This document shows, piece by piece, positions 4,279 to 20,844 of a stretch of DNA of 56,657 bases. Source of the DNA: a virus (lineage: Duplodnaviria > Caudoviricetes). The DNA is taken from IMG/VR virus record IMGVR_UViG_3300006115_000011, positions 1 through 56,657 of that record. One strand, 5' to 3'. The notes under the pieces were generated by a model. The model searched no databases, was not told where the DNA came from, and saw only the letters and a list, made by a program, of their open reading frames with translations. Position 1 is the stretch's first letter; each line of letters opens with the position of its first letter. A program made the translations under genes and the position numbers.

Positions 4279-4516
4279 CAACTGCGACGTAAAAGATTGT
4301 TTGTTATGCGCTCTTGGTCACGCACATAAGCATATGACGCTGAATGATCTCGTTAAGCACTTAACTGATTGCGTTAAAGATAATGACGAGCTACTCACAA
4401 GATTAGATAAAGCACCGTGTGTGGATGCAGACAAGATTTACACAGGCGCTAACTTTGATGCAGCTCACGAATACGAGTTGAATAAAAGCACTGGCGAAGT
4501 TCAGCGCAAGACATGA
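4271..4516 (+). CDS. Hypothetical protein between terS and terL
   Basis: Overlaps both neighbours in operon fashion. Confidence 0.6.
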   Translation: MNNNCDVKDCLLCALGHAHKHMTLNDLVKHLTDCVKDNDELLTRLDKAPCVDADKIYTGANFDAAHEYELNKSTGEVQRKT

Positions 4517-5952
4517 ACAACTTAGCATCCGTACTTAAAGACGCGGATACTAAACGACAGTTCGCATCAATGCCGCTAGATAAGCAAAAGGCTTACGTGT
4601 GGCGCATGAACTGGCTAATGAAAGCACATAAGCATCAAGTGCTGCCACCTGGTGACTGGGCGATCTGGTTACTGCTTGGTGGTCGAGGTGCAGGTAAGAC
4701 AAGAACGGCAGCCGAGCAGATAGCTTGGTGGGCCTACAGTCAACCGAAGACACGCTGGCTAGTGTCAGCACCAACTGCGATGGACGTGCGTGGAACGTGC
4801 TTTGAAGGTGACTCAGGCTTATTGACGATCATGCCAGCCGAGATGATCGCAGAGTATAACAAGTCGCTGCTTGAGATTAAGCTGACTAACGGATCATTGA
4901 TCAAGGGTATCTCAGCATCAGAACCTGATCGCTTCCGAGGTGGACAATATCACGGCGCGTGGTTAGACGAGTTAGCAGCATGGGATTACTTACAAGACGC
5001 CTGGGACATGATCATGTTATCAGTGCGGCTAGGACAGCAGACAAGGATCATAGCGTCAACAACGCCACGACCTAAAGACTTAGTAGTAGATTTAGTAGGA
5101 CGAGCGCAGGATGGCTCAGGTGAAGTTGTAATGACTACCGCGTCAACATACGCGAACATTGCTAACTTAGCACCAAGCTTCCAGCAACAGATCCTACAGT
5201 ACGAAGGAACGAAGCTAGGCCGACAAGAGATCTATGCTGAGCTGATCGATCCAGAAGAAGGCGGCATAGTTAAACGTAACATGTTTAAGCTCTGGCCACA
5301 TGGTAAAGCGTTTCCTAAGTTCGAGTACATCATACAAAGCTATGATTGTGCTTACACTGAGAAGACGATCAACGATCCGACAGCTTGCTTAGTGTTTGGA
5401 TTGTTTAAGCCAATGGACGGACCGATGTCAGTGATGTTGATAGACGCGTGGCAGGATCATATGCAATACCCTGACTTGCGCAAGAAGGTAAGAGAGGAAT
5501 ACGAGGTAAGCTATGGAGCTGACAGTGAGAATGACACAGGCGAATTTGTCAAGGGTAAGCGCGTTGATCTCATACTTGTCGAGGACAAGGCAGCTGGAAT
5601 CAGTCTTGTACAAGATATGCAACGGGCGCATCTACCAGTGCGAGCTTACAACCCAGGGAAAGCGGATAAGGTGCAAAGACTATCGATTGTTGCAAACATT
5701 ATTGCACATGGCCGCGTCTGGATCCCAGAGTCCAACAACAACAAGGGATACGTTAGGGATTGGGCAGAAGGCTTCGTGTCTCAGATATGTGCGTTCCCTG
5801 AAGCAACGCATGATGACTATGTGGATGCGTGTACGCAAGCACTAAGATACTTTAGAGACGCTGGCCTATTAAGTATAGATCCAGCACCGAGTGAAGACGA
5901 TTACTATGCTGACGAAGAACCACAAGCACGTGTGAATCCTTATGCGATATAG
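4513..5952 (+). CDS. terL: Terminase large subunit
   Basis: Walker A GGRGAGKT, Walker B WLDE, motif III TTP, RNase H-like C-domain (SYDCA...HDDYVDA). Confidence 0.96.
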   Translation: MNNLASVLKDADTKRQFASMPLDKQKAYVWRMNWLMKAHKHQVLPPGDWAIWLLLGGRGAGKTRTAAEQIAWWAYSQPKTRWLVSAPTAMDVRGTCFEGDSGLLTIMPAEMIAEYNKSLLEIKLTNGSLIKGISASEPDRFRGGQYHGAWLDELAAWDYLQDAWDMIMLSVRLGQQTRIIASTTPRPKDLVVDLVGRAQDGSGEVVMTTASTYANIANLAPSFQQQILQYEGTKLGRQEIYAELIDPEEGGIVKRNMFKLWPHGKAFPKFEYIIQSYDCAYTEKTINDPTACLVFGLFKPMDGPMSVMLIDAWQDHMQYPDLRKKVREEYEVSYGADSENDTGEFVKGKRVDLILVEDKAAGISLVQDMQRAHLPVRAYNPGKADKVQRLSIVANIIAHGRVWIPESNNNKGYVRDWAEGFVSQICAFPEATHDDYVDACTQALRYFRDAGLLSIDPAPSEDDYYADEEPQARVNPYAI

Positions 5953-9200: not shown

Positions 9201-10543
9201 CTGGATTTCCTGAAGAAGGTTCAGCTACTACAGACTTAGGTAAAGAGTGGCAATACAAAGTTGATTCAATATTTAAACCACATACCGCTGAAGATATTAA
9301 AGAAATATACAGAAATCCAAATATTAATGAAAAACAAAAACAATCAAGACTTCGTATAGAGCATGACCTTCCAATATATGACGAAAAAGATTATGACGCT
9401 CTTAAACTTATTAATGAAATACCTGATAAAAATGTATACACAATTGGTGGAACTAATATTGCAAGAAAGCTAGGGCTTGATCATGTAGCCGATGTATTAC
9501 ATGAAGACTTAACTTCAGGAAGATTGCAACCTGAACAGCTAAATCAAATGTCTATCGAGAAAGCTGTACGCCGTGCTGCAGATTATGACGCACAAAAAGC
9601 TCGCGAGATGACTAAGGCTCACGCTACGTCAGTTGAAGGCATGCCAATACCTAAACAATACGATGATGGTTTCAAATGGGTAGAGCTTAAACATCCTACT
9701 GAATCAGAGAAAACAAAAGGCGCACTTAAATCAGAAGGGGAAATGATGGGACATTGCGTTGGCAGCTATTGTCCTCAAGTTGAAAGTGGCCACACAAAAA
9801 TATATTCATTGCGCGGCCCTGATAACAAATCACATGTAACTATTGAAGCAACTAAAAAGAATCATCTTAATGATTGGTTAGACGCAAATAAAGAAGAGAT
9901 TGAAAAAGATCCTTTATTAAAACAAATGTCTTACTACGATGCTGATGAAAAATATCCTGGTATGTATTCAGAGGAAGAAGTACAACAAGCATACATTGCA
10001 GAAATAACAAAAATGTTAAAAAGAAAAGGTGCTCCAGTACATGAAGCTCCAAACTCATGGATAGATATTGAGCAAGTTAAGGGTAAACAAAACAAACGCC
10101 CTGATGACAAATACCAAAAGTATGTAACTGACTTCATAAAAAATAATCCAACTGGACATGAGATTGCTGACATACATGAATTAAATAATACAAACCTTCA
10201 TGATGTTCAATCTATGATAGCTGAAGGCGTGATGCCTAAAAAACTTCATATGCATCCTATTGTAGATAAAGCAGTTGGTATAGATCAACCTCATCTTGCA
10301 GCAAGAATGAATGATCCTAGATTTAGTAATGAAATTACAGATGAAAAATTTAACCTATTTAAAAACATTGGCAGAGACTTGGCAAACAAAGGCCAATACT
10401 ATGTTGATGATGAAGACATATTAAATGCAATCAAAACAAAATATTTGCCAATTAAAAAAGCCAAAGGTGGGCCAATAGATTTAGAAAAAGAATACAGATT
10501 AGCAAATGTAATAGATTTTAACTCAAGGAGACGTTATGGCTGA
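6197..10543 (+). CDS. Large multi-module (polyvalent-like) protein with a C-terminal PcfJ-like domain
   Basis: 1448 aa. EGEMMGHCVGSY...IYSLR...VTIE...QVKGKQN is PcfJ-like. Modules are separated by AKGG/AGG and KDGG/AQGG/ADGG linkers. Confidence 0.75.
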   Translation: MGVTNKLLQEITEAAAKGLERKAVEVAARDPVLPPPLPRAKPYTDEQLRSFAERMAPQVNGEFVRLDPTTSKNPADLSYKVWKRQQELQHTIVPTREVQSTVPYDPAKWEGHVLSSIVGDPTIGDKEIIDINGKKLVVPSKQEAGSLYGLGEPKDAWASTKNAAKTIQGRIIDTSNIYNAPVLGVYTKGGSGSYSYAHHINDALLKNIYSNLDQMTPKQIQAFNTLIRNHTPEFAGIENLEASLNQFKTNPELRKKFYAEAIKPTNSATMNIPNGSDVVHAALEPDLRYLESGATGHSIMQLDPSQTTLQPATHTTYTNRIPRLENTPVMQSSTPIPYQLQYPDQMQAIMNNPRQAPQPFGTISMGGASQINDAQHVDQISKYLQFMKELTGRAKGGSIHMGAGGSLAEAIVKGVEESAGKAVAPKVNRIDMHFKDVTKRVPELSKGFQQLTTGEITPAGYEALVNQYKPVTPFSFVPKPATPEEAIGALKENQKGLYGVPSQILQEGHPVGLRLDIPAYTNKGVWVPTIHEQISGHGAGPLIGHESVAHVTDPTFGMSQKAAASIAGGNPKGTIATIKGNWKPTTPDETVAKATEIMNDPEWIQVGMDPERHSHFYDRATMEPVVAGKEAIQVGPAVFVKNPTYGKKEDFLYKDGGRAYAQGGGVHMADGGSNMQQNAVDPITAYFMQNINPTNLDMMPSPSSSYIPQKITPSPSQATFNKVSGISPVTNIIKEVTGGIQNGVQNQLPTDIQNAYKNGPQSISDIGIRAANSLAGFPMDIANSLGYGNPSSPYNNNVVPSQSQLNYNMPAKKPAPLTTEAFNEATMPLQSGNSYPALETAAASIGPGIAEDVGSIGKTAVKKGANFLGQELVNAKGANRNLIGKYLNAIDPELNIIKPQGGMLVSGETELERELRHIKKDEGVVGRYVEPENMINVNDSLKDKRAVALNNWIDTKVKKYIRNQAGTENDPIFKAIESGVQYNFDPAMGDTKYMTQVKRAKAGFPEEGSATTDLGKEWQYKVDSIFKPHTAEDIKEIYRNPNINEKQKQSRLRIEHDLPIYDEKDYDALKLINEIPDKNVYTIGGTNIARKLGLDHVADVLHEDLTSGRLQPEQLNQMSIEKAVRRAADYDAQKAREMTKAHATSVEGMPIPKQYDDGFKWVELKHPTESEKTKGALKSEGEMMGHCVGSYCPQVESGHTKIYSLRGPDNKSHVTIEATKKNHLNDWLDANKEEIEKDPLLKQMSYYDADEKYPGMYSEEEVQQAYIAEITKMLKRKGAPVHEAPNSWIDIEQVKGKQNKRPDDKYQKYVTDFIKNNPTGHEIADIHELNNTNLHDVQSMIAEGVMPKKLHMHPIVDKAVGIDQPHLAARMNDPRFSNEITDEKFNLFKNIGRDLANKGQYYVDDEDILNAIKTKYLPIKKAKGGPIDLEKEYRLANVIDFNSRRRYG

Positions 10544-13148
10544 GATGCCCATTGAACAGGAATATGACAGACATATTGCTGGTATAAAAACACAAGAGAA
10601 TGCAGACGGAAGTGCCGAAGTTGAAATACCTGAACAAGAAGAAGGTATTGTAGAGAACGAAGACGGCTCAGCTACTGTACACCTTGAAGAATTTAAAGGT
10701 CCAGCTGAAGATGAAGATTTCTATTCTAACTTAGCTGAATCAGTCAACTTATACGACTTAGATAAGATTGGTAACCGTTATTTAGATTTAATTAAGAAGG
10801 ATAAAGAAGCACGTGAAAAACGCGATAAACAATACGAAGAAGGTATTAGGCGAACTGGTTTGGGTGATGACGCTCCTGGTGGCGCGAATTTTATGGGAGC
10901 TTCTCGCGTGGTACACCCAGTTATGGCAGAAGCCTGCGTCGACTTCGCATCAAGTGCGATCAAAGAACTCTTTCCGCCTGATGGCCCAACGCGAATCCAA
11001 ATCTTAGGTGACGCTGACGAGATCAAGACAGAAGTAGCAGAACGTAAACGTGATTACATGAACTGGCAATTAACGGAGCAGATTGAAGAGTTCCGTGACG
11101 AGCAAGAACAGTTACTCACACAGTTACCGTTAGGTGGCTCACAGTTTATGAAGTTATGGTATGACGAAAAGAAACGTCGTCCATGCGCAGAGTTCGTGCC
11201 TATTGATAACATTCTTTTACCATTCGCATCAGTTAACTTCTACACATCACAACGTGTAACTGAAGTACAACAAATTACTGAGTGGGAATTTAATCAACGT
11301 GTTGATCGTGGTTTATATCGCGATGTTAATCTTATTCGTGCTACATCAGAACCTGAAGAAACTAAATCAGAACAAGCTTCTAATAAAGTTGAAGGTCGTC
11401 AATGGCAAGATAATGAAGATGGTTTACGCACTGTATATCACATCTATACATACCTTGAACTTGATGATGACAAACGTACTAAAGGCGAATCAGCACCATA
11501 CATTATGATGATTGATAGTCTTGAACACAAAATACTAGGTCTATATAGAAACTGGGAGGAAGGCGATGAAACGTTTAACAAGTTGGATTGGCTCATTGAA
11601 TTCAAGTTTATTCCTTGGAGGGGTGCTTACGCAATTGGTCTCCCTCATCTTATTGGCGGCCTTAGTGCTGCTCTTACTGGCGCTCTCCGCGCTCTATTGG
11701 ATACCGCTCATATTAATAACAGCGCTACTATGCTTAAACTCAAAGGCGCGAAGATTAGTGGTTCGTCACAACAGATCGAAGTAACACAAGTATCAGAAAT
11801 TGAAGGCGCACCAGGTGTAGATGATGTACGTAAGATTGCTATGCCTATGCCATTTAATCCACCATCACAAGTATTGTTTGAATTACTTGGTTGGTTAGAT
11901 ACTGCTGCTAAAGGTGTGGTATCAACATCTGAAGAGAAGATTGCAGACATTAATGCAAACTCCCCAGTAGGTACAGCACAAGCTTTAATTGAGCAAGGCG
12001 CAAAAGTATTCTCAGCTATTCACGCACGATTACATGATTCACAAAGACGTGTATTGCAAGTGCTTGGCCGTATCAATCGTTGGTATCTAGATGACATGAA
12101 GAAAGGCGACGTTGTTGCTGACCTTCCTGTTTCACGTGATGACTTCAAACGTAACTCAGACATCGTTCCTGTTTCTGATCCGCACATATTTTCAGAAACA
12201 CAACGTATGGCACAGAATCAAGCCGTATTGCAATTAATGACACAGTTCCCACAAGCGTTTGATCAAAATGCTGTGATTACACGTGTATTAAAACAAATGA
12301 AGGTGCCAGGTGTTAATGAGTTAATGCCAGCTAATGCACAACCAGCAGAGATGGATGCATCTAACGAAAATGCTGCAATGGCTTTAGGTAAATCAGCTTT
12401 TGCTTACCCTGATCAAGATCAACTATCGCATATTCAAGCTCACCTTGATTTTGCATTAGATCCTAATTTAGGTAGCAACAACTTGATTGCACCACAATTC
12501 ATACCACAAGTATTAGAGCATGTAAAACAACATATGGTTCTTTGGTATACACAACAAATGCAAACATATGCTGGTGGCCATCAAAAAGTTAACTTGCAAA
12601 AATATGAAGATAGCAAGCTTAAAACACAAATTGATAAAGTGGTGGCGATTGCTGGTCAACATGTTAAGTTGGATTCACAACAAACATTTTCTGGCGTAGC
12701 ACAAGCATTACAACAACTTGGTCAACTCATGCAGAAATTTGCTCCACAACCGCAAATGGATCCATCAGATCAAGCTGTATTACAAGCTTCTATGGCAGAA
12801 ACAAATCGTCGCGCACAACGCGATCAAGCCGATGTTCAATTGGCTCAACAAAAACTTCAAGCTGATACTCAGTTAAATAGCAACAAGGTTCAAACGGATC
12901 AAGCAATTAAGAACCAAGCTTTACAAACTGATATTCAATTGAAGCAACAAGAGTTAGCACAAGCAAGTGACGCAGATGCAGCTCGCCTTAAAACGGATAT
13001 TGCAATGAATTCACAAAACAATGCTACTGCTGAAAAGATCAAGGCTGCGCAATTAGCCCACGATCAACAGAAGATGCATACAGATTTGGCAACTCATATG
13101 CATGATTCTTTACATAAACACTTAGGAGATAGTAATGGCAATTATTAA
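10536..13148 (+). CDS. Portal protein
   Basis: 870 aa; between terL and the head genes; podovirus-type portal features with a C-terminal Gln-rich coiled barrel. Confidence 0.9.
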   Translation: MAEMPIEQEYDRHIAGIKTQENADGSAEVEIPEQEEGIVENEDGSATVHLEEFKGPAEDEDFYSNLAESVNLYDLDKIGNRYLDLIKKDKEAREKRDKQYEEGIRRTGLGDDAPGGANFMGASRVVHPVMAEACVDFASSAIKELFPPDGPTRIQILGDADEIKTEVAERKRDYMNWQLTEQIEEFRDEQEQLLTQLPLGGSQFMKLWYDEKKRRPCAEFVPIDNILLPFASVNFYTSQRVTEVQQITEWEFNQRVDRGLYRDVNLIRATSEPEETKSEQASNKVEGRQWQDNEDGLRTVYHIYTYLELDDDKRTKGESAPYIMMIDSLEHKILGLYRNWEEGDETFNKLDWLIEFKFIPWRGAYAIGLPHLIGGLSAALTGALRALLDTAHINNSATMLKLKGAKISGSSQQIEVTQVSEIEGAPGVDDVRKIAMPMPFNPPSQVLFELLGWLDTAAKGVVSTSEEKIADINANSPVGTAQALIEQGAKVFSAIHARLHDSQRRVLQVLGRINRWYLDDMKKGDVVADLPVSRDDFKRNSDIVPVSDPHIFSETQRMAQNQAVLQLMTQFPQAFDQNAVITRVLKQMKVPGVNELMPANAQPAEMDASNENAAMALGKSAFAYPDQDQLSHIQAHLDFALDPNLGSNNLIAPQFIPQVLEHVKQHMVLWYTQQMQTYAGGHQKVNLQKYEDSKLKTQIDKVVAIAGQHVKLDSQQTFSGVAQALQQLGQLMQKFAPQPQMDPSDQAVLQASMAETNRRAQRDQADVQLAQQKLQADTQLNSNKVQTDQAIKNQALQTDIQLKQQELAQASDADAARLKTDIAMNSQNNATAEKIKAAQLAHDQQKMHTDLATHMHDSLHKHLGDSNGNY
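11566..11784 (+). CDS. Putative nested membrane protein in the +1 frame of the portal
   Basis: GGAGG SD just upstream of ATG; ~40 aa hydrophobic core with a basic tail; local portal Leu codons avoid TTA. Confidence 0.4.
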   Translation: MKRLTSWIGSLNSSLFLGGVLTQLVSLILLAALVLLLLALSALYWIPLILITALLCLNSKARRLVVRHNRSK

Positions 13149-16358: not shown

Positions 16359-17273
16359 ATGGCAGCTCCAATGCGTAGTACGGACTTCCGAAGTATCGTT
16401 GAACCAATCCTTAATGAATGCTTCGATGGCGTATATGATCAACGTACCGATGAATGGTCACGCGTTTTCCGTGAACAAGACGGTATTCCAAGAAACTATC
16501 ACGAAGAACCAGTTCTTTACGGTTTCGGCACAGCACCACAGTTACCTGATGGCACACCAGTGTCTTATCAACAAGGTGGTGTTCTCTTCTTACAACGTTA
16601 TGTTTACCAAGTTTACGGACTTGCGTTTGCATTAACGAAAGTTCTTGTAGAAGATGGTGACCATATCCGTATCGGACAAGTTTATGCAAGACACTTAGCA
16701 CAATCTTTAATTGAAACTAAAGAAACACTTTGCGCTAACATTCTTAACAATGCATTTAACTCTTCATACACAGGTGGCGACGGCGTTCAATTGAACTCTA
16801 CAGCTCACCCAATCGTTAACGGCACTGTAAGTAACTTACTTTCAACTGCTGCTAACCTTTCACAAACATCACTTGAACAAATGTTAATTCAAATCCGTCA
16901 AGCTGTTGACAACAACGGTAAGAAGATTCGTTTAGTACCAAGACAACTTGTTGTTGCTCCTGGTAACATTTTCCAAGCTGAAGTATTGTTAAAATCTGTT
17001 TTAAGAACAGGTACTGCTAACAACGACGTAAACCCAATTAAATCAATTGGTTTATTAGATGAAGGCGCTGCTGTTCTTTCACGTTTAACATCTTCAACAG
17101 CATGGTGGGTTCAAACAGATGCTCCAGAAGGTATGAAGCTCTTAATGCGTCGTAAGTTAGAAAAAACTATGGAAGGTGACTTTGAAACAGATTCAATGCG
17201 TTACAAAGCTACTGAGCGTTATATTCCAGGTTGGACTGACTGGCGTGCAATGTTTGGTACTCCAGGCGTTTAA
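16359..17273 (+). CDS. Major capsid protein (HK97 fold)
   Basis: Strong SD AGGAGG; biased codon use; C-terminal DFETDSMRYKATERY...DWRAMFG; followed by a terminator. Confidence 0.9.
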   Translation: MAAPMRSTDFRSIVEPILNECFDGVYDQRTDEWSRVFREQDGIPRNYHEEPVLYGFGTAPQLPDGTPVSYQQGGVLFLQRYVYQVYGLAFALTKVLVEDGDHIRIGQVYARHLAQSLIETKETLCANILNNAFNSSYTGGDGVQLNSTAHPIVNGTVSNLLSTAANLSQTSLEQMLIQIRQAVDNNGKKIRLVPRQLVVAPGNIFQAEVLLKSVLRTGTANNDVNPIKSIGLLDEGAAVLSRLTSSTAWWVQTDAPEGMKLLMRRKLEKTMEGDFETDSMRYKATERYIPGWTDWRAMFGTPGV

Positions 17274-17352: not shown

Positions 17353-18333
17353 ATGCCACAATTTAGTGACGATCTGTTTTTAGGTTCAGCAAAAACCTTT
17401 ATGGGCATCGCTAAACAGGATTCAACTTCTGTTTTCACAGGCTCAATTGCAACAACAACATTAACTGTTACAGCTATGTTATCTGGCGATCCATTGGTCG
17501 TTGGTCAATATATTACTGGTGCTAACGTTTCAGCAGGTACTTACATTACTGCATTCGTTTCAGGCACAGGTGGTACTGGTACATACACTGTTAACACTTC
17601 ACAAACTGCTGCTAGCGCAACTGTTTACGCTAACGGTAATGCTTTATTAGGTGATCCAGCTCCAATGGACTTAGGTATTGGCCCATTAGGTCGTATCTAT
17701 ATATGGGACACAATCCCTGTTACTAAAGCTAATAACAACGTATCAGCTGCTGCTACATATTCAGCTGCAGGTTCTGCAACACTTGCTGCAGGTACAGGCA
17801 CTTCATCTGTAACACGTACAGACGGCACAACAGTAATTCAATTAGACGTACCACGTGGTCTTTCAATCACAATTGGTACAGGTACAATTACAAACCGTAA
17901 CGTAACTATTTCAGGTTATGACTATTATGGCCAAGCAATGACTGAAATCATCGCAACAGGCACTACACAATCTACAACTATCAACGGTAAAAAAGCTTTC
18001 TACCAAGTTTCTGGTGCAACAGTATCAGGCGCAGTAGGCGGTACAGTTGCTATTGGTACATCAGACGTTTTAGGTTGCCCTGTTCGTTTCATTGACAGAG
18101 GTTATCTTGATAGCGTGGGTTGGAATAACGTTCTTGCTGAAGATGTTGCTACTACAGTAGTTGCTGATTTAACAAACCCAGCTACATCATCAACTGGTGA
18201 CGTACGCGGCACAATCACTCCATCAAGCTCACCTGATGGCACTAAACGTTTAGTTGTTGGTATTTACTTACCAGCTATCGCTGTAGGCCCAAATGCAACA
18301 CGACTTGGCGCTCTTGGCGTAGACCAAGCTTAA
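17353..18333 (+). CDS. Virion structural protein with one intact 'FTGSI...TGTYTVN' beta domain
   Basis: Thr/Gly-rich, directly after the capsid gene; shares a domain with 25702-27117. Confidence 0.7.
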
Positions 18334-18345
18334 GGAGAAATATAA

Positions 18346-19482
18346 ATGGCTCAATTTAAACCAATGATTAAAATGGAAACTACTGAACCTTCAGTAGAAC
18401 TCAAGCTTAAAAAAGGTGGTCATGCTAAACATCACATGAAAAAAGGTGGTAAAGCTGAACACGGTCACAAACATATGAAACACATGATGGACGGTGGCGT
18501 TCTTGGCGCTTTAGCTGGACAACCAGCTTTAGTTAAAGCACGCAGACCTGCACTTGCAGCTATTGCTAGACCAGCTGCTCCTTCAATGGCTGCTCGTCGC
18601 GCTGCGATGATGGCTAAAAAAGGTGGCGCTGCTAAGCATAAAGCTAAAGGCGGTAAAATCGAGCATCTAGAAGAAGAACTTAAACACCATGAACACATGA
18701 AAGCTGGTAAAGCTCATCATGGCCTTAAAAAAGGTGGTAAGGCTTGCTACGCAGTTGGTGGCACAGTATCTGATTCAGTAGCTAGAAAATATGCAGAAAC
18801 ATTAATGCATACAGATGAGCATATGGATACAGTTAAAGGCCCTACTGGCGGTGTTAAAGAAGGTAATGGTGGTGGCTACAAAAAAGGCGGCAAAGTACAT
18901 CATAAGGCAACTGGTGGTGTTATGGAGTCTAATGCTGGTGGCTACAAAAAAGGCGGTAAGGTAAAACATCACGCTAAAGGTGGTTCTGCTTCAGGCGAAG
19001 AGATTGATCGTTTTGAAGCAAGAAGTGCTATTGAGCATGATGAAGGTCCGTATGAAGAAACTGAAATGCATACTGCCAAAAAAGATAAAGCTCATGGAAC
19101 TGGCGATGTAAAAGAAGGTAACGCTGGTGGTTACAAACATGGCGGTAAGGCTCACCACATGAAAAAAGGTGGTGCATCAAAAAAAGCCTACGCCACGGGG
19201 GGAAGTGTTAATAACGCTGGTCGCGCCGTGGCATTAGTACCAAGAGGTGTTGGAGCTAAAAAAGCACCTCCTGTTGCAATAACAGCGCTATCTGGAACCT
19301 ATAAAAAAGGTGGCAAGGTAGCTTCTGGTAACCGTAAGTTAGAATCAGTTTATGATAGCGAAAATGCTCCAGATGTTCGTGAATCTAAAGCTGATACGCG
19401 TTTGAAATATGACCAAGATACATATCAAGGTCAAAACATTCCAAAGGCACCAACTTACAAAAAACGTGGCGGTAAATGCTAA
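18346..19482 (+). CDS. Lys/His/Gly-rich protein with ~16 [K/A]xGG repeats, ending in GGKC
   Basis: SD TAAGGAG; repeats KKGG, AKGG, AVGG, ATGG, KHGG. Confidence 0.8.
   Translation: MAQFKPMIKMETTEPSVELKLKKGGHAKHHMKKGGKAEHGHKHMKHMMDGGVLGALAGQPALVKARRPALAAIARPAAPSMAARRAAMMAKKGGAAKHKAKGGKIEHLEEELKHHEHMKAGKAHHGLKKGGKACYAVGGTVSDSVARKYAETLMHTDEHMDTVKGPTGGVKEGNGGGYKKGGKVHHKATGGVMESNAGGYKKGGKVKHHAKGGSASGEEIDRFEARSAIEHDEGPYEETEMHTAKKDKAHGTGDVKEGNAGGYKHGGKAHHMKKGGASKKAYATGGSVNNAGRAVALVPRGVGAKKAPPVAITALSGTYKKGGKVASGNRKLESVYDSENAPDVRESKADTRLKYDQDTYQGQNIPKAPTYKKRGGKC
19179..19232 (+). promoter_or_regulatory. Putative programmed -1 ribosomal frameshift signal
   Basis: In-frame A AAA AAA heptamer, 6-nt spacer, GCCACGG/CCGTGGC stem enclosing AGTGTT/AACGCT. 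The -1 frame ends SLRHGGKC-stop at 19209-19211. Confidence 0.7.
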
Positions 19483-19490
19483 CAACAAAT

Positions 19491-19523
19491 TGGTAGGGGG
19501 AGAAATTCCCCCTCCATTTTTTT
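19491..19523 (+). terminator. Rho-independent terminator
   Basis: TGGTAGGGGGA-GAAA-TTCCCCTCCA hairpin followed by a T-run. Confidence 0.8.
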
Positions 19524-19534
19524 AAGGATTAAAT

Positions 19535-20314
19535 ATGAGTAACGCAATAGTTTCATCAATTACAAGACAGGGTGCTTACGAGCCATTTGACTTACAAGTT
19601 GCTCGCAATCAAATTCTTGGCCATACTACTGTAAGTATTTTTGGTTATCAACCATCATTAACTACTACTTCAATTCCAATTTGGGAAAATGCTTCTACAT
19701 ATACATATATTACATCGGCATCAACATTATCATTAGTAAGTACATCTGCATCAGATGATACATCTGCAAAAATTTTAATTAGCGGTTTAGATTCAAACTT
19801 TAACCCTATTTCTGAAACATTAGCAATGAATGGTACTGGTGCTGTAACTACAGTTAATAGTTATTTTAGAGTTAATAGTTTATTAATGACTTCACCTGGA
19901 ACTGGACAAAATACTAATGTAGGCACTATTACATTAAAACAATCATCAAACGTAGTTGCGCAAATTAACGTAGGGATTGGTAAATCACAAAGCACTATTT
20001 TTACAGTGCCAGCAGGTTATACATTTTATTTAGATTTGGCAGAAGTAAATACATCAAATAGCTATACAGGTTCAACAATCGTTACATATAAAGTTCAAGC
20101 AATTAATAATGTAACTGGCGTTAAATTAACTGTATTACAACAGCCATTTGTATCTATTTATACAGCAACTAGATCTCAAGATCCATTTGCTTATTCTGAA
20201 AAAACAGATATTCAATGGCAATTAGTAACTAATACTGGAACGATTGCAGCTGGTGTAATTGTGACTGGTAAGCTAATTCAAAATAACAATACAACAACTG
20301 GTTCAGGTAGTTAA
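19535..20314 (+). CDS. Virion structural protein (259 aa)
   Basis: Thr/Ser-rich; LQVARNQI...FGY, FTVPAGYT and EKTDI motifs seen in phage structural proteins. Confidence 0.7.
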   Translation: MSNAIVSSITRQGAYEPFDLQVARNQILGHTTVSIFGYQPSLTTTSIPIWENASTYTYITSASTLSLVSTSASDDTSAKILISGLDSNFNPISETLAMNGTGAVTTVNSYFRVNSLLMTSPGTGQNTNVGTITLKQSSNVVAQINVGIGKSQSTIFTVPAGYTFYLDLAEVNTSNSYTGSTIVTYKVQAINNVTGVKLTVLQQPFVSIYTATRSQDPFAYSEKTDIQWQLVTNTGTIAAGVIVTGKLIQNNNTTTGSGS

Positions 20315-20316
20315 TT

Positions 20317-20844
20317 ATGCCAAGCGTAAGCAAAAAACAACATAACTTAATGGAAGCTGTGGCTCATAGTTCTTCTTTTGCTAAAAAAGTAGGTATACCA
20401 CAACATGTTGGAAAAGATTTTGCTGAAGCAGACAAAGGTAAAAAGTTTGCTAAAGGTGGTTTATATGCAAATATTCATGCTAAACAAGAGCGTATAGCTC
20501 ATGGTAGTCACGAACATATGCGTAAGCCTGGATCAAAAGGCGCACCAACTGCTGAAGCATTTAAAAAGTCAGCATTAACTGCAAAACCAATGAAAGAAGG
20601 TGGCCCATCTCTAGCGGTAGGACGCGGTGAGAAGTTACCTACAAAACAAGGCGCAGGGCTAACAGCAAAAGGCCGTGCTAAATATAATCGAGAAACAGGT
20701 AGTCACTTAAAGGCACCACAACCTCAAGGAGGTTCACGTAAGAATAGCTTTTGTGCGCGTATGTCAGGTGTTGTAAAACACTCATCAGGCGACGCTCCTA
20801 GAGCAAAAGCTTCCTTAAGACGTTGGAAATGCCCAGGGTGGTAA
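20317..20844 (+). CDS. Basic three-module protein; C-terminal module DUF6321-like
   Basis: Modules MPSVSKKQHN..., GLYANIHAKQERI... and GAGLTAKGRAKYN...SFCARM...SLRRWKC, joined by FAKGG and MKEGG. Confidence 0.7.
   Translation: MPSVSKKQHNLMEAVAHSSSFAKKVGIPQHVGKDFAEADKGKKFAKGGLYANIHAKQERIAHGSHEHMRKPGSKGAPTAEAFKKSALTAKPMKEGGPSLAVGRGEKLPTKQGAGLTAKGRAKYNRETGSHLKAPQPQGGSRKNSFCARMSGVVKHSSGDAPRAKASLRRWKCPGW

Follow-up and report, generated by a model that had tools for sequence, protein, structure and literature searches.

The described systems closest to the element reported here are genes decoded with programmed −1 ribosomal frameshifting (PRF), in which the RNA structure behind the slippery heptamer usually starts after 5-9 nt and, in the dnaX type, an internal Shine-Dalgarno (SD) sequence sits about 10 nt upstream of the heptamer. 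In the IS3 family (IS911-type OrfA/OrfAB), A AAA AAG with a downstream structure fuses two open reading frames (ORFs) into a longer enzyme, and in phage T7 a −1 shift near the end of the head-module gene 10A/10B, at a different heptamer, lengthens the capsid protein and gives two isoforms. A AAA AAG is also the heptamer of dnaX and is reported as the most shift-prone in Escherichia coli (PMC5009743). Tail-chaperone genes make up 2,397 of the 2,476 annotated PRF genes in 3,679 downloaded SEA-PHAGES genomes, according to the figures in PMC10885494. Here we describe a putative frameshift cassette in a tailed-phage gene (18346..19482). The gene belongs to IMGVR_UViG_3300006115_000011, a virus record of IMG/VR that is complete at 56,657 bp and is called, as a whole, the window below. 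The cassette, made up of a slippery heptamer, a short spacer and a hairpin, very probably directs a dnaX-like −1 PRF that yields, beside the full-length protein, a truncated isoform with a selected cysteine tail.

The cassette and the relatives sampled

The first-pass annotation, made from the letters of the window, had proposed this arrangement, and the gene, heptamer, stem, inner helix and −1 tail all lie where it had placed them (Table 1). Its lengths of 288 residues for the −1 product and 378 for the 0-frame product, with the ends KKSLRHGGKC and KKRGGKC, are correct as well. It had also called the local codons GC-rich, and the GC content of 19186-19232 is 66% against 43% for the whole gene; the only GGG among the gene's 59 glycine codons falls inside the cassette, and 19186-19232 holds two of the four GCC codons among its 51 alanine codons.

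Table 1. Coordinates of the cassette, its gene and the terminase, portal and capsid genes in the window
Feature	Position	Strand	Basis or remark
0-frame gene	18346..19482	+	ORF list; 378 residues, ends KKRGGKC*
SD-like AAGGTGGT	19166..19173	+	ends 5 nt before heptamer
Slippery heptamer A AAA AAA (X XXY YYZ, 0 frame)	19179..19185	+	sequence; tcA AAA AAA gcc
−1 tail AGC CTA CGC CAC GGG GGG AAG TGT TAA = SLRHGGKC*	19185..19211	+	sequence; family statistics
Spacer GCCTAC, 6 nt	19186..19191	+	sequence
Outer stem, 5' arm GCCACGG	19192..19198	+	minimum free energy (MFE) fold; third base covaries with 3' arm
Inner hairpin AGTGTT, loop aat, AACGCT	19204..19218 (arms 19204-09 / 19213-18)	+	MFE fold
Outer stem, 3' arm CCGTGGC, encoding part of A-V-A	19226..19232	+	MFE fold
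0-frame C-terminus AAA AAA CGT GGC GGT AAA TGC TAA = KKRGGKC*	19459..19482	+	sequence
Terminase	4513-5952		window gene order
Portal	10536-13148		window gene order
Capsid, Phage_capsid_4	16359-17273		window gene order

Relatives were collected from IMG/VR in several scans. The initial protein-based scan gave 16 loci, four of which, three at 53% identity (L001, L002 and L004) and one at 39% (L003), have the same 24-nt core, AAAAAAAGCCTACGCCACGGGGGG, as the window gene, and −1 tails of the form KKSLRHGG[Q/K]C*; the core was not found in the 12 more distant homologues among these 16 loci. The exact 24-mer occurs in 107 IMG/VR stretches. Later scans used peptide motifs written as fully degenerate codons, so that no nucleotide was selected, and returned at least 117 stretches for KKAYATGG, at least 120 for KKHFATGG and 16 for KKAYANGG. 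Two unrelated genes (L235 and L236) were removed, and the pool drawn from the matches listed consisted of 254 distinct 150-nt contexts, 252 of which were long enough for analysis. Expected frequencies were obtained by synonymous resampling, in which the 0-frame codons were redrawn from the family's own codon usage. An alignment-free profile of 12-mer conservation along the gene was dropped, as the repeated coding of GGYKKGG peaks elsewhere and the cassette differs between classes.

A slippery heptamer under selection

The heptamer of the window consists of the A at 19179 and the two 0-frame lysine codons at 19180-82 and 19183-85. There are 12 runs of six or more A in the gene, and only this run starts at a third codon position; the remaining 11 are in-phase AAA AAA without the extra 5' A. 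Among the relatives the X base is A in 252/252, compared with 23% at comparable third positions elsewhere in the contexts, and seven different codons carry it (GCA 116, TCA 80, ACA 35, CCA 7, TTA 7, GTA 6 and ATA 1). The first lysine codon is AAA in 252/252, although AAA has a share of only 51% elsewhere. The second is either AAA or AAG, so that 162 sites read A AAA AAA and 90 read A AAA AAG. This is exactly the codon pattern demanded by X XXY YYZ. The window and L003 use the same codon at 44% of identical residues, and their longest run of identical codons, 11 in length, covers residues 278-288. It is clear from these comparisons that the heptamer is under selection beyond the amino-acid requirement.

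The two unrelated genes removed from the pool served as a control; they have G or T in front of the lysine codons and no short cysteine tail. As a further control, a degenerate cassette pattern was run against the genomes of 185,579 species, where 17 of the 24 matches were unrelated DNA, 10 of them in Bdellovibrio. The −1 frames of the 17 unrelated matches ran for 8 to 209 codons and none ended in cysteine. The Bdellovibrio genomes and metagenome-assembled genomes (MAGs; L425, L431, L432, L434-L436, L441, L445 and L446) have a conserved ...GCAAAAAAAGAYTTCGCGACRGGGGGCAG... in short or absent ORFs, and this stretch, which has nothing to do with the phage gene, is perhaps a non-coding element.

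The proposed internal SD sequence fared less well than the heptamer. An SD-like AAGGTGGT is present as had been claimed, but its standing as a specific signal was not upheld, as RGGNGG precedes the heptamer by 6 nt in 161/252 relatives, by 9 nt in 22 and by 8 nt in one, and is missing within 20 nt in the other 68. In the window gene AAGGTGG occurs seven times, encoding the recurring K-G-G. The SD-like sequence is probably just lysine-glycine-glycine coding, and glycine-glycine codons account for RGGNGG in the relatives; a role as a specific stimulator is not supported.

A covarying stem behind the heptamer

The outer stem of the window starts 6 nt past the heptamer, within the usual spacing of PRF structures, and the spacer is 5 nt in relatives whose stem adds an outer C-G pair. 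The KKAYATGG class has GCC as its first spacer codon in 144/150 contexts and TAC as its second in 144/150. The 60-nt fold of the cassette has −24.4 kcal/mol compared with −17.7 ± 2.9 for shuffled sequences (z −2.3), and since 7 of 200 shuffles folded equally well, this fold alone is only suggestive.

The pairing of the stem was examined in 238 contexts by a fair test of one base pair, in which the 3' arm was located by its six other bases and the tested base was left free. At the third position of GCNACGG the pairing was C:G in 143 contexts, U:A in 51, G:C in 39, A:U in two and G:U in one; the two largest pooled sets also hold loci initially retrieved by exact nucleotide match, which inflates the canonical C:G class and not the variant pairs. 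The anchor was missing in 2/238 contexts, and the 236 anchored sites gave 235 Watson-Crick pairs and no mismatches. The tested pair is synonymous on both sides (alanine GCN, valine GTN), with the valine third base of the 3' arm (GTG, GTC, GTA or GTT) varying with the 5' arm, and most of the stem changes are synonymous on both arms. A change of ACG to ACA is paired with a change of CCC to CCT in 6/6 contexts. The KKAYANGG class has a rebuilt stem, GCTAAYGGC / GCCRTTAGT, in which AAC+GTT becomes AAT+ATT at the cost of a valine-to-isoleucine replacement. A long-loop class (34 contexts) has its 3' arm about 60 nt further downstream, past the first Pro/Ala-Val-Ala site and at the second Pro-Val-Ala site, and its stem encloses a GGCA/UGCC hairpin.

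Over all 252 contexts, 9-nt arms were complementary at 9/9 positions in 124 and at 8/9 in 72, compared with 1 and 31 for shuffled arms. RNAalifold and pair counts on an alignment of 146 rows recovered the 7-bp core, with CG 76, UA 38, GC 30 and AU 2 at column 19/55; since an exact 7-nt complement had been the criterion for including a row, the 100% pairing of the core is circular and only the covariation counts. This covariation establishes, as far as comparison of relatives can, that the downstream stem is under selection. The inner helix pairs in 54.7% of cells of the mixed 146-row alignment and was recovered by RNAalifold in the 45-sequence class with the loop length of the window; by this measure it is class-specific.

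A pseudoknot between loop GGC(A) and downstream (U)GCC was also considered and was not supported, with 77.6% of cells pairing, a compensatory change in one cell only, and candidate bases that encode a conserved glycine and Met-Pro. No Rfam match at E<=1, and no Rfam frameshift element, was found in 18000-20000. The cassette hairpin is not followed by a T run and is therefore not a terminator.

A short −1 tail that carries cysteine

Read in the −1 frame, the two lysine codons lead through the tail given in Table 1 to a stop at 19209-11. A −1 stop within 12 codons is present in 252/252 relatives, against 0.42 under synonymous resampling. Cysteine occurs in the −1 tail in 221/252 (0.16 under resampling) and is its last residue in 197/252 (0.03), and the tail ends in GGxC* in 183/252. 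Counted with the two lysines, the tails are 10 residues long at 203 sites, 8 at 32, 5 at 14 and 11 at 3.

The codons of the KKAYATGG class indicate how the ending is kept. Of the 145 codons listed for the variable residue (150 contexts), 138 end in T, the following valine is GTT in 129/150, and aspartate or asparagine (GAY/AAY) comes next in 128/150, a combination that reads TGT TGA or TGT TAA in the −1 frame. Glycine is encoded by GGG in 143/150, whereas most glycines upstream use GGT or GGC. Where the terminal cysteine is lacking, the unpaired spacer often supplies an internal cysteine (KKSLC..., KKAFC...) through a synonymous change, either TAC to TAT or TTC to TTT; in 238 contexts the cysteine was terminal only in 183, internal only in 24, both in 2 and absent in 29. 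The KKAYANGG subfamily has the tail S[IV]C* in 12/14 contexts, the KKFAEGG and KKYA[RK]GG genes have VC*, and L355 has SC*.

The −1 stop and the cysteine in the −1 tail are, on these frequencies, under selection. The first-pass annotation had taken both isoforms to be selected for GGKC; the cysteine part of that claim stands (221/252 tails, and 163/240 of the 0-frame proteins described below), and the GG part falls with the S[IV]C* and VC* tails. We regard cysteine as the conserved feature of the tail, with GG common and not required, and the claim is accordingly generalized to a cysteine at or near both carboxyl ends.

The VC* sites have the form A AAA AAG T[TA]T GCT [GA]A and are the main site in some genes and an extra site in others. 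An additional in-frame A AAA AAG T[TA]T GCT GA lies past the main cassette in MW202545.1 (L422, at 8072) and in L018, L021, L039, L170, L336 and L392. These extra sites would read KKVC* in the −1 frame; they could serve as second sites of shifting, or could simply follow from the recurring KK[FY]A[DE] motif.

Full-length ends, prevalence and a frame-swapped relative

Among 240 complete ORFs, the 0-frame protein ends in cysteine in 163 and in GG-x(1-3)-C in 150; many full-length relatives end in K or R instead. Cysteine in the tail and at the 0-frame end tend to co-occur (151, 59, 12 and 18; odds ratio 3.8, with kinship ignored).

A further sample was anchored at the N-terminus, using FKPMVKMxTTEP written as degenerate DNA, and gave at least 120 stretches, 77 loci of which were absent from the earlier scans. 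Of these, 54 have the strict cassette (heptamer, −1 stop within 12 codons and 7/7 stem) and seven have the heptamer and a short cysteine tail with a weaker stem; three were classed as other, four have no in-frame heptamer, and in nine the ORF is cut by the contig end. The cassette is thus present in 61 of the 68 assessable genes. The strict cassettes have a median short form of about 229 residues and a long form of about 366, and 56/67 full-length proteins in this sample end in cysteine. Six short single-form genes were examined, including the four without a heptamer. Four of them end in cysteine and a fifth in ...GCR, and each of these five, with cysteine at or next to the end, is followed by a terminator-like hairpin.

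In one relative, L357, the two frames have exchanged roles. Its 0 frame ends in ...GGAAKKC* directly after A AAA AAA, about 231 codons past the N-terminal anchor, while its −1 frame stays open for 113 codons, takes in the usual C-terminal domain and ends in KKGGAC*, so that the long form can be reached only by a −1 shift. The hairpin is intact (−33.8 kcal/mol, z −5.2). Compared with the canonical core, L357 has a 1-nt deletion and several substitutions, which is no simple homopolymer miscount; it is a single assembled contig, and an assembly error is possible. The review by Atkins et al., citing dnaX in the passage concerned, notes that near 50% efficiency one change can reverse which product needs the shift (PMC5009743). 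By this dnaX logic L357 hints at efficient shifting, perhaps near one half.

Proposed mechanism and its alternatives

We propose that ribosomes decode the two lysine codons of the heptamer, A AAA AAA in the window and A AAA AAG in many relatives, and would be stalled there by the GC-rich hairpin that starts 5-6 nt downstream, upon which a fraction of the tRNA-Lys pairs would re-pair one base back. The shifted ribosomes would read 2-8 more codons and terminate, in the window yielding the 288-residue isoform ...KKSLRHGGKC, and the unshifted ribosomes would continue for about 100 further residues to the 378-residue protein ending in ...KKRGGKC. The outcome would be two isoforms with a common disordered, polycationic N-terminal part and, in most members, a basic stretch followed by a cysteine near each end. 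That shifting takes place, and at what rate, is inferred. The terminal cysteine would act in a disulfide, a metal site or another covalent link; in adenovirus, by way of analogy only, the basic C-terminal peptide pVIc has a cysteine that makes a functional disulfide.

The first-pass annotation had likewise read the locus as a −1 PRF site and had named the homologues as the place to look for a conserved heptamer, stem and −1-frame GGxC. There the heptamer is kept in 252/252, the stem covaries through four pair types, a short −1 stop is present in 252/252, and the GGxC* ending and the tail cysteine have the frequencies given above, so that the reading was not refuted.

A wider proposal is a good deal more tentative, and we think it rather doubtful as a whole. 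It would make these genes an unrecognized class of disordered, polycationic, histidine-rich phage head-module proteins, whose working end is a free cysteine near the carboxyl terminus that serves a disulfide, metal or other covalent link within the particle or on the DNA, and in which recoding supplies a short 'anchor-only' form and a long form with an extra C-terminal domain, each with a cysteine end of its own, at a fixed and probably high ratio. On that view the target of selection would be the trans-frame peptide itself, arrived at anew in at least four codings, a part that we hold just as tentatively.

Several points weigh against frameshifting with a selected cysteine tail or limit the evidence for it. 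The heptamer of the window, A AAA AAA, is less shift-prone than A AAA AAG in E. coli (PMC5009743), which may not be the behaviour in the host with its own set of tRNA-Lys. The single-sequence fold has a z of only −2.3, with 7/200 shuffles equally stable, and in the VC* subclass a clear hairpin was seen in only two of the six distinct main-site sequences folded. Cysteine is absent from 29/238 tails and from the end of 77/240 full-length proteins, and TGT could be kept in part by the inner RNA helix rather than by selection on the peptide. The 252 sites are akin by descent, so that the counts and Fisher tests describe conservation and no independent events; the two largest scans (KKAYATGG and KKHFATGG) cover only the matches listed, and the pooled KKAYATGG set includes loci originally retrieved by the exact 24-nt match.

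The tails without cysteine lead to an alternative that concerns the cysteine alone, namely that frameshifting is real and solely sets the amount of the C-terminal domain, with the tail cysteine functionless. Besides the 29/238 tails without cysteine, the 32/252 tails that stop right after GG, RG or GR, the many full-length relatives ending in K or R and the overlap of the terminal TGT with the inner helix in some classes would fit this explanation. A functionless cysteine would not, however, be expected in 221/252 tails against 16% under synonymous resampling, nor in at least four encodings (GGxC*, internal through TAT or TTT, S[IV]C* and VC*) of which the internal and terminal forms nearly exclude each other. 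The short single-form members, which end in cysteine in 4/6 with a fifth in ...GCR, and the 56/67 N-terminus-anchored full-length proteins with a cysteine end also argue against it, and we consider it unlikely.

Contigs assembled from four lake metatranscriptome libraries cover parts of the gene; such contigs show neither the level of transcription nor rare slippage products, and the uncovered parts carry no meaning. Two of them (X15 record 3 and X16 record 6) span the run of the window as A7 without an insertion or deletion. RNA-library contigs of relatives (401-1,021 nt) match the window only over the 34-nt cassette, 19178-19211, with three differences, and their flanks are unlike the window. 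As far as these alignments go, the cassette is the most conserved nucleotide stretch common to these phages.

The same truncated protein would be encoded if RNA polymerase added one A to the mRNA, and the seven-A run of the window makes transcriptional slippage conceivable. For slippage to be efficient, bacterial polymerases in general require a run of at least about nine, a length that neither A7 (162 sites) nor A6G (90 sites) reaches, and the 90 sites with six A and then G have the heptamer reported as most prone to ribosomal shifting in E. coli. The run begins at a third codon position in 252/252, as tandem tRNA slippage requires, and a covarying hairpin at a distance of 5-6 nt is what classically stimulates ribosomes to shift. 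The two A7 contigs also speak against slippage, albeit weakly, because contigs drop rare variants. We judge transcriptional slippage very unlikely.

The hairpin might instead have another role, in mRNA stability or processing, protein binding or co-translational pausing, with the −1 frame an untranslated by-product. Covariation proves structure and not purpose, and TGT and the G run lie within or beside paired regions, as such a role would allow. It would leave unexplained the invariant A before the lysine codons, the invariant AAA and the −1 stop within 12 codons in 252/252. The cysteine of the unpaired spacer (TAT or TTT followed by GCN), found almost only where the terminal cysteine is missing (24 against 2), the Cys-stop tails of very different sequence in other subfamilies, and the long domain of L357, reachable only through a −1 shift, are equally out of keeping with it, and the hairpin has no Rfam match and no T run. 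The probability of this explanation is, in our estimate, very small and a shade below that of slippage. Chance, by which a repetitive gene rich in AAA AAA GGN GGN (12 A runs, seven AAGGTGG motifs, 7/200 shuffles folding equally) would throw up heptamer, stem and short −1 frame, is practically discounted by the heptamer, stem, −1 stop and cysteine counts across relatives, by an identical 24-nt core in proteins merely 39-53% identical, and by the 11-codon identical run (residues 278-288, window and L003) against a background of 0.44. Frameshifting with a selected cysteine tail is the explanation we retain.

The protein and its surroundings

The 378-residue protein is rich in lysine, glycine, histidine and alanine, with recurring KKGG motifs, and has no match to a Pfam or PHROG family. 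At least 4,625 homologues were found at E<=1e-5 among 8,000 scored candidates; none of the 120 homologues listed has a Pfam domain, and all are 'hypothetical' or unnamed except for one stray label. The ESM Atlas model has a predicted local distance difference test (pLDDT) of 0.37; the clusters closest to it consist of viral proteins without names and score below 0.9. An AlphaFold2 model from a 51-row alignment has a mean pLDDT of 49, with short helices only at 81-89, 312-315, 330-348 and 351-354; the protein is predicted to be disordered. The N-terminus of the family, about 24 residues (MGQFKPMVKMxTTEP[ST]VxLKLKKG), is far better conserved than the remaining disordered protein and could be a targeting, cleavage or interaction signal.

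The cassette gene follows the terminase, portal and capsid genes listed in Table 1. After the capsid gene the order is a 326-residue protein, the cassette gene, a 259-residue protein and a DUF6321 protein; the next gene in this order, as seen in MW202545.1, a GenBank phage from a MAG, is annotated as tail adaptor. The capsid of MW202545.1 is 87.8% identical to that of the window. This phage has the gene and the cassette, with the tail KKSLCHGG*, annotated as a single hypothetical protein without a frameshift. When 50,697 GenBank phage records were searched with the window gene, neither Megablast nor tblastn gave a match, the tblastn negative being unreliable, as the MW202545.1 homologue was reached via the capsid gene and had been missed by tblastn. 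The BLAST low-complexity filter had probably masked the low-complexity query, and a 'no match' obtained with this filter on is therefore unreliable for the family. When the MW202545.1 homologue was used as the query in the phage collection, it matched only itself. A search of the literature by titles and abstract openings found no paper on the family or the cassette, which does not prove absence.

The capsids of Caulobacter phages RW, GB2A, RLK and KcrB are 77.6% identical to that of the window; of these four, RW was examined downstream of its capsid gene, and the cassette gene is missing from that place. Capsid matches at about 40% include Pelagibacter phages of the HTVC023P type and Roseobacter CRP-901/902, and both RW and MW202545.1 have an annotated GroES-like co-chaperonin upstream of the capsid module. 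From its position, charge and disorder, a head-associated, DNA-contacting role is plausible for the protein, which we infer to be a virion (head-associated) component.

The sequencing runs that contain the window are freshwater or lake-water metagenomes. The genome scan described above recovered seven true family members on MAG contigs assigned to Burkholderiaceae, Betaproteobacteria, Dechloromonas, Porticoccaceae and Hyphomicrobium; we name no host, because the binning of phage contigs is unreliable. The host-inference check found no tRNA genes.

Two further features were noted next to the gene. Directly past its stop, at 19495-19523, lies a terminator-like hairpin, AGGGGGAGAAATTCCCCCT, followed by CCATTTTTTT, and similar GGGGGCTTCGGCCCCC hairpins sit after the stop in short family members. 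The DUF6321 neighbour (20317-20844) begins with MPSVSKKQHN, and in four IMG/VR loci (L012-L015) this N-terminus is fused to the KKGG / HHEHMKAGKAHHGLK module of the frameshift family. The ORF ends in ...KYC* or ...RFC* in three of these loci; in the fourth it runs off the end of the contig. The fusions suggest that the DUF6321 and frameshift families exchange modules, both with the habit of a terminal cysteine.

Significance and comparison with known systems

We regard the cassette as a real, strongly conserved recoding signal in a very large uncharacterized phage protein family. The members come from uncultured phages, and gene callers and the MW202545.1 record give only the long form, so that a whole set of proteins would be missing from the annotations. 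Hundreds of natural variants, with two heptamers, short-loop and long-loop stems and a frame-swapped form, make a comparative series for the stimulators of bacterial −1 PRF, and the cassette would suit a clean new RNA family. The recurrent selection of cysteine at both isoform ends is a functional clue where sequence and fold methods cannot place the protein.

Compared with the IS911-type elements, the locus has no transposase and no mobile-element context. T7 10A/10B has nothing of the terminal cysteine logic seen here. Lambda gpG/gpGT is similar in that a conserved −1 shift in a structural-module gene of a tailed phage makes two proteins that share an N-terminus at a fixed ratio (PMC5009743). 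The G/GT shift lies near the gene end, extends the protein, has a low efficiency and seems to need no stimulator. In contrast, the shift proposed here is internal (codon 280 of 378) and truncating, with a strong covarying hairpin, and the gene lies between capsid and adaptor genes and not before the tape-measure gene.

The closest parallel is E. coli dnaX (tau/gamma), which uses A AAA AAG, as do 90/252 relatives, with a hairpin after a short spacer, and whose shifted product is truncated with a very short trans-frame tail, as described in PMC5389563 and PMC5009743. In dnaX, as seen in L357, a small change can swap the roles of the frames (PMC5009743). For all this likeness the cassette does not belong to the dnaX family: its protein is unrelated, with no Pfam match and a phage head-module neighbourhood, Rfam offers no matching element, and the upstream SD of dnaX has no convincing counterpart. 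What is unusual next to dnaX is the trans-frame tail, which has a length of 3-9 residues after the two lysine codons and carries a selected cysteine that mirrors the 0-frame terminus, as though repeatedly shaped to end in the way the full-length protein usually ends.

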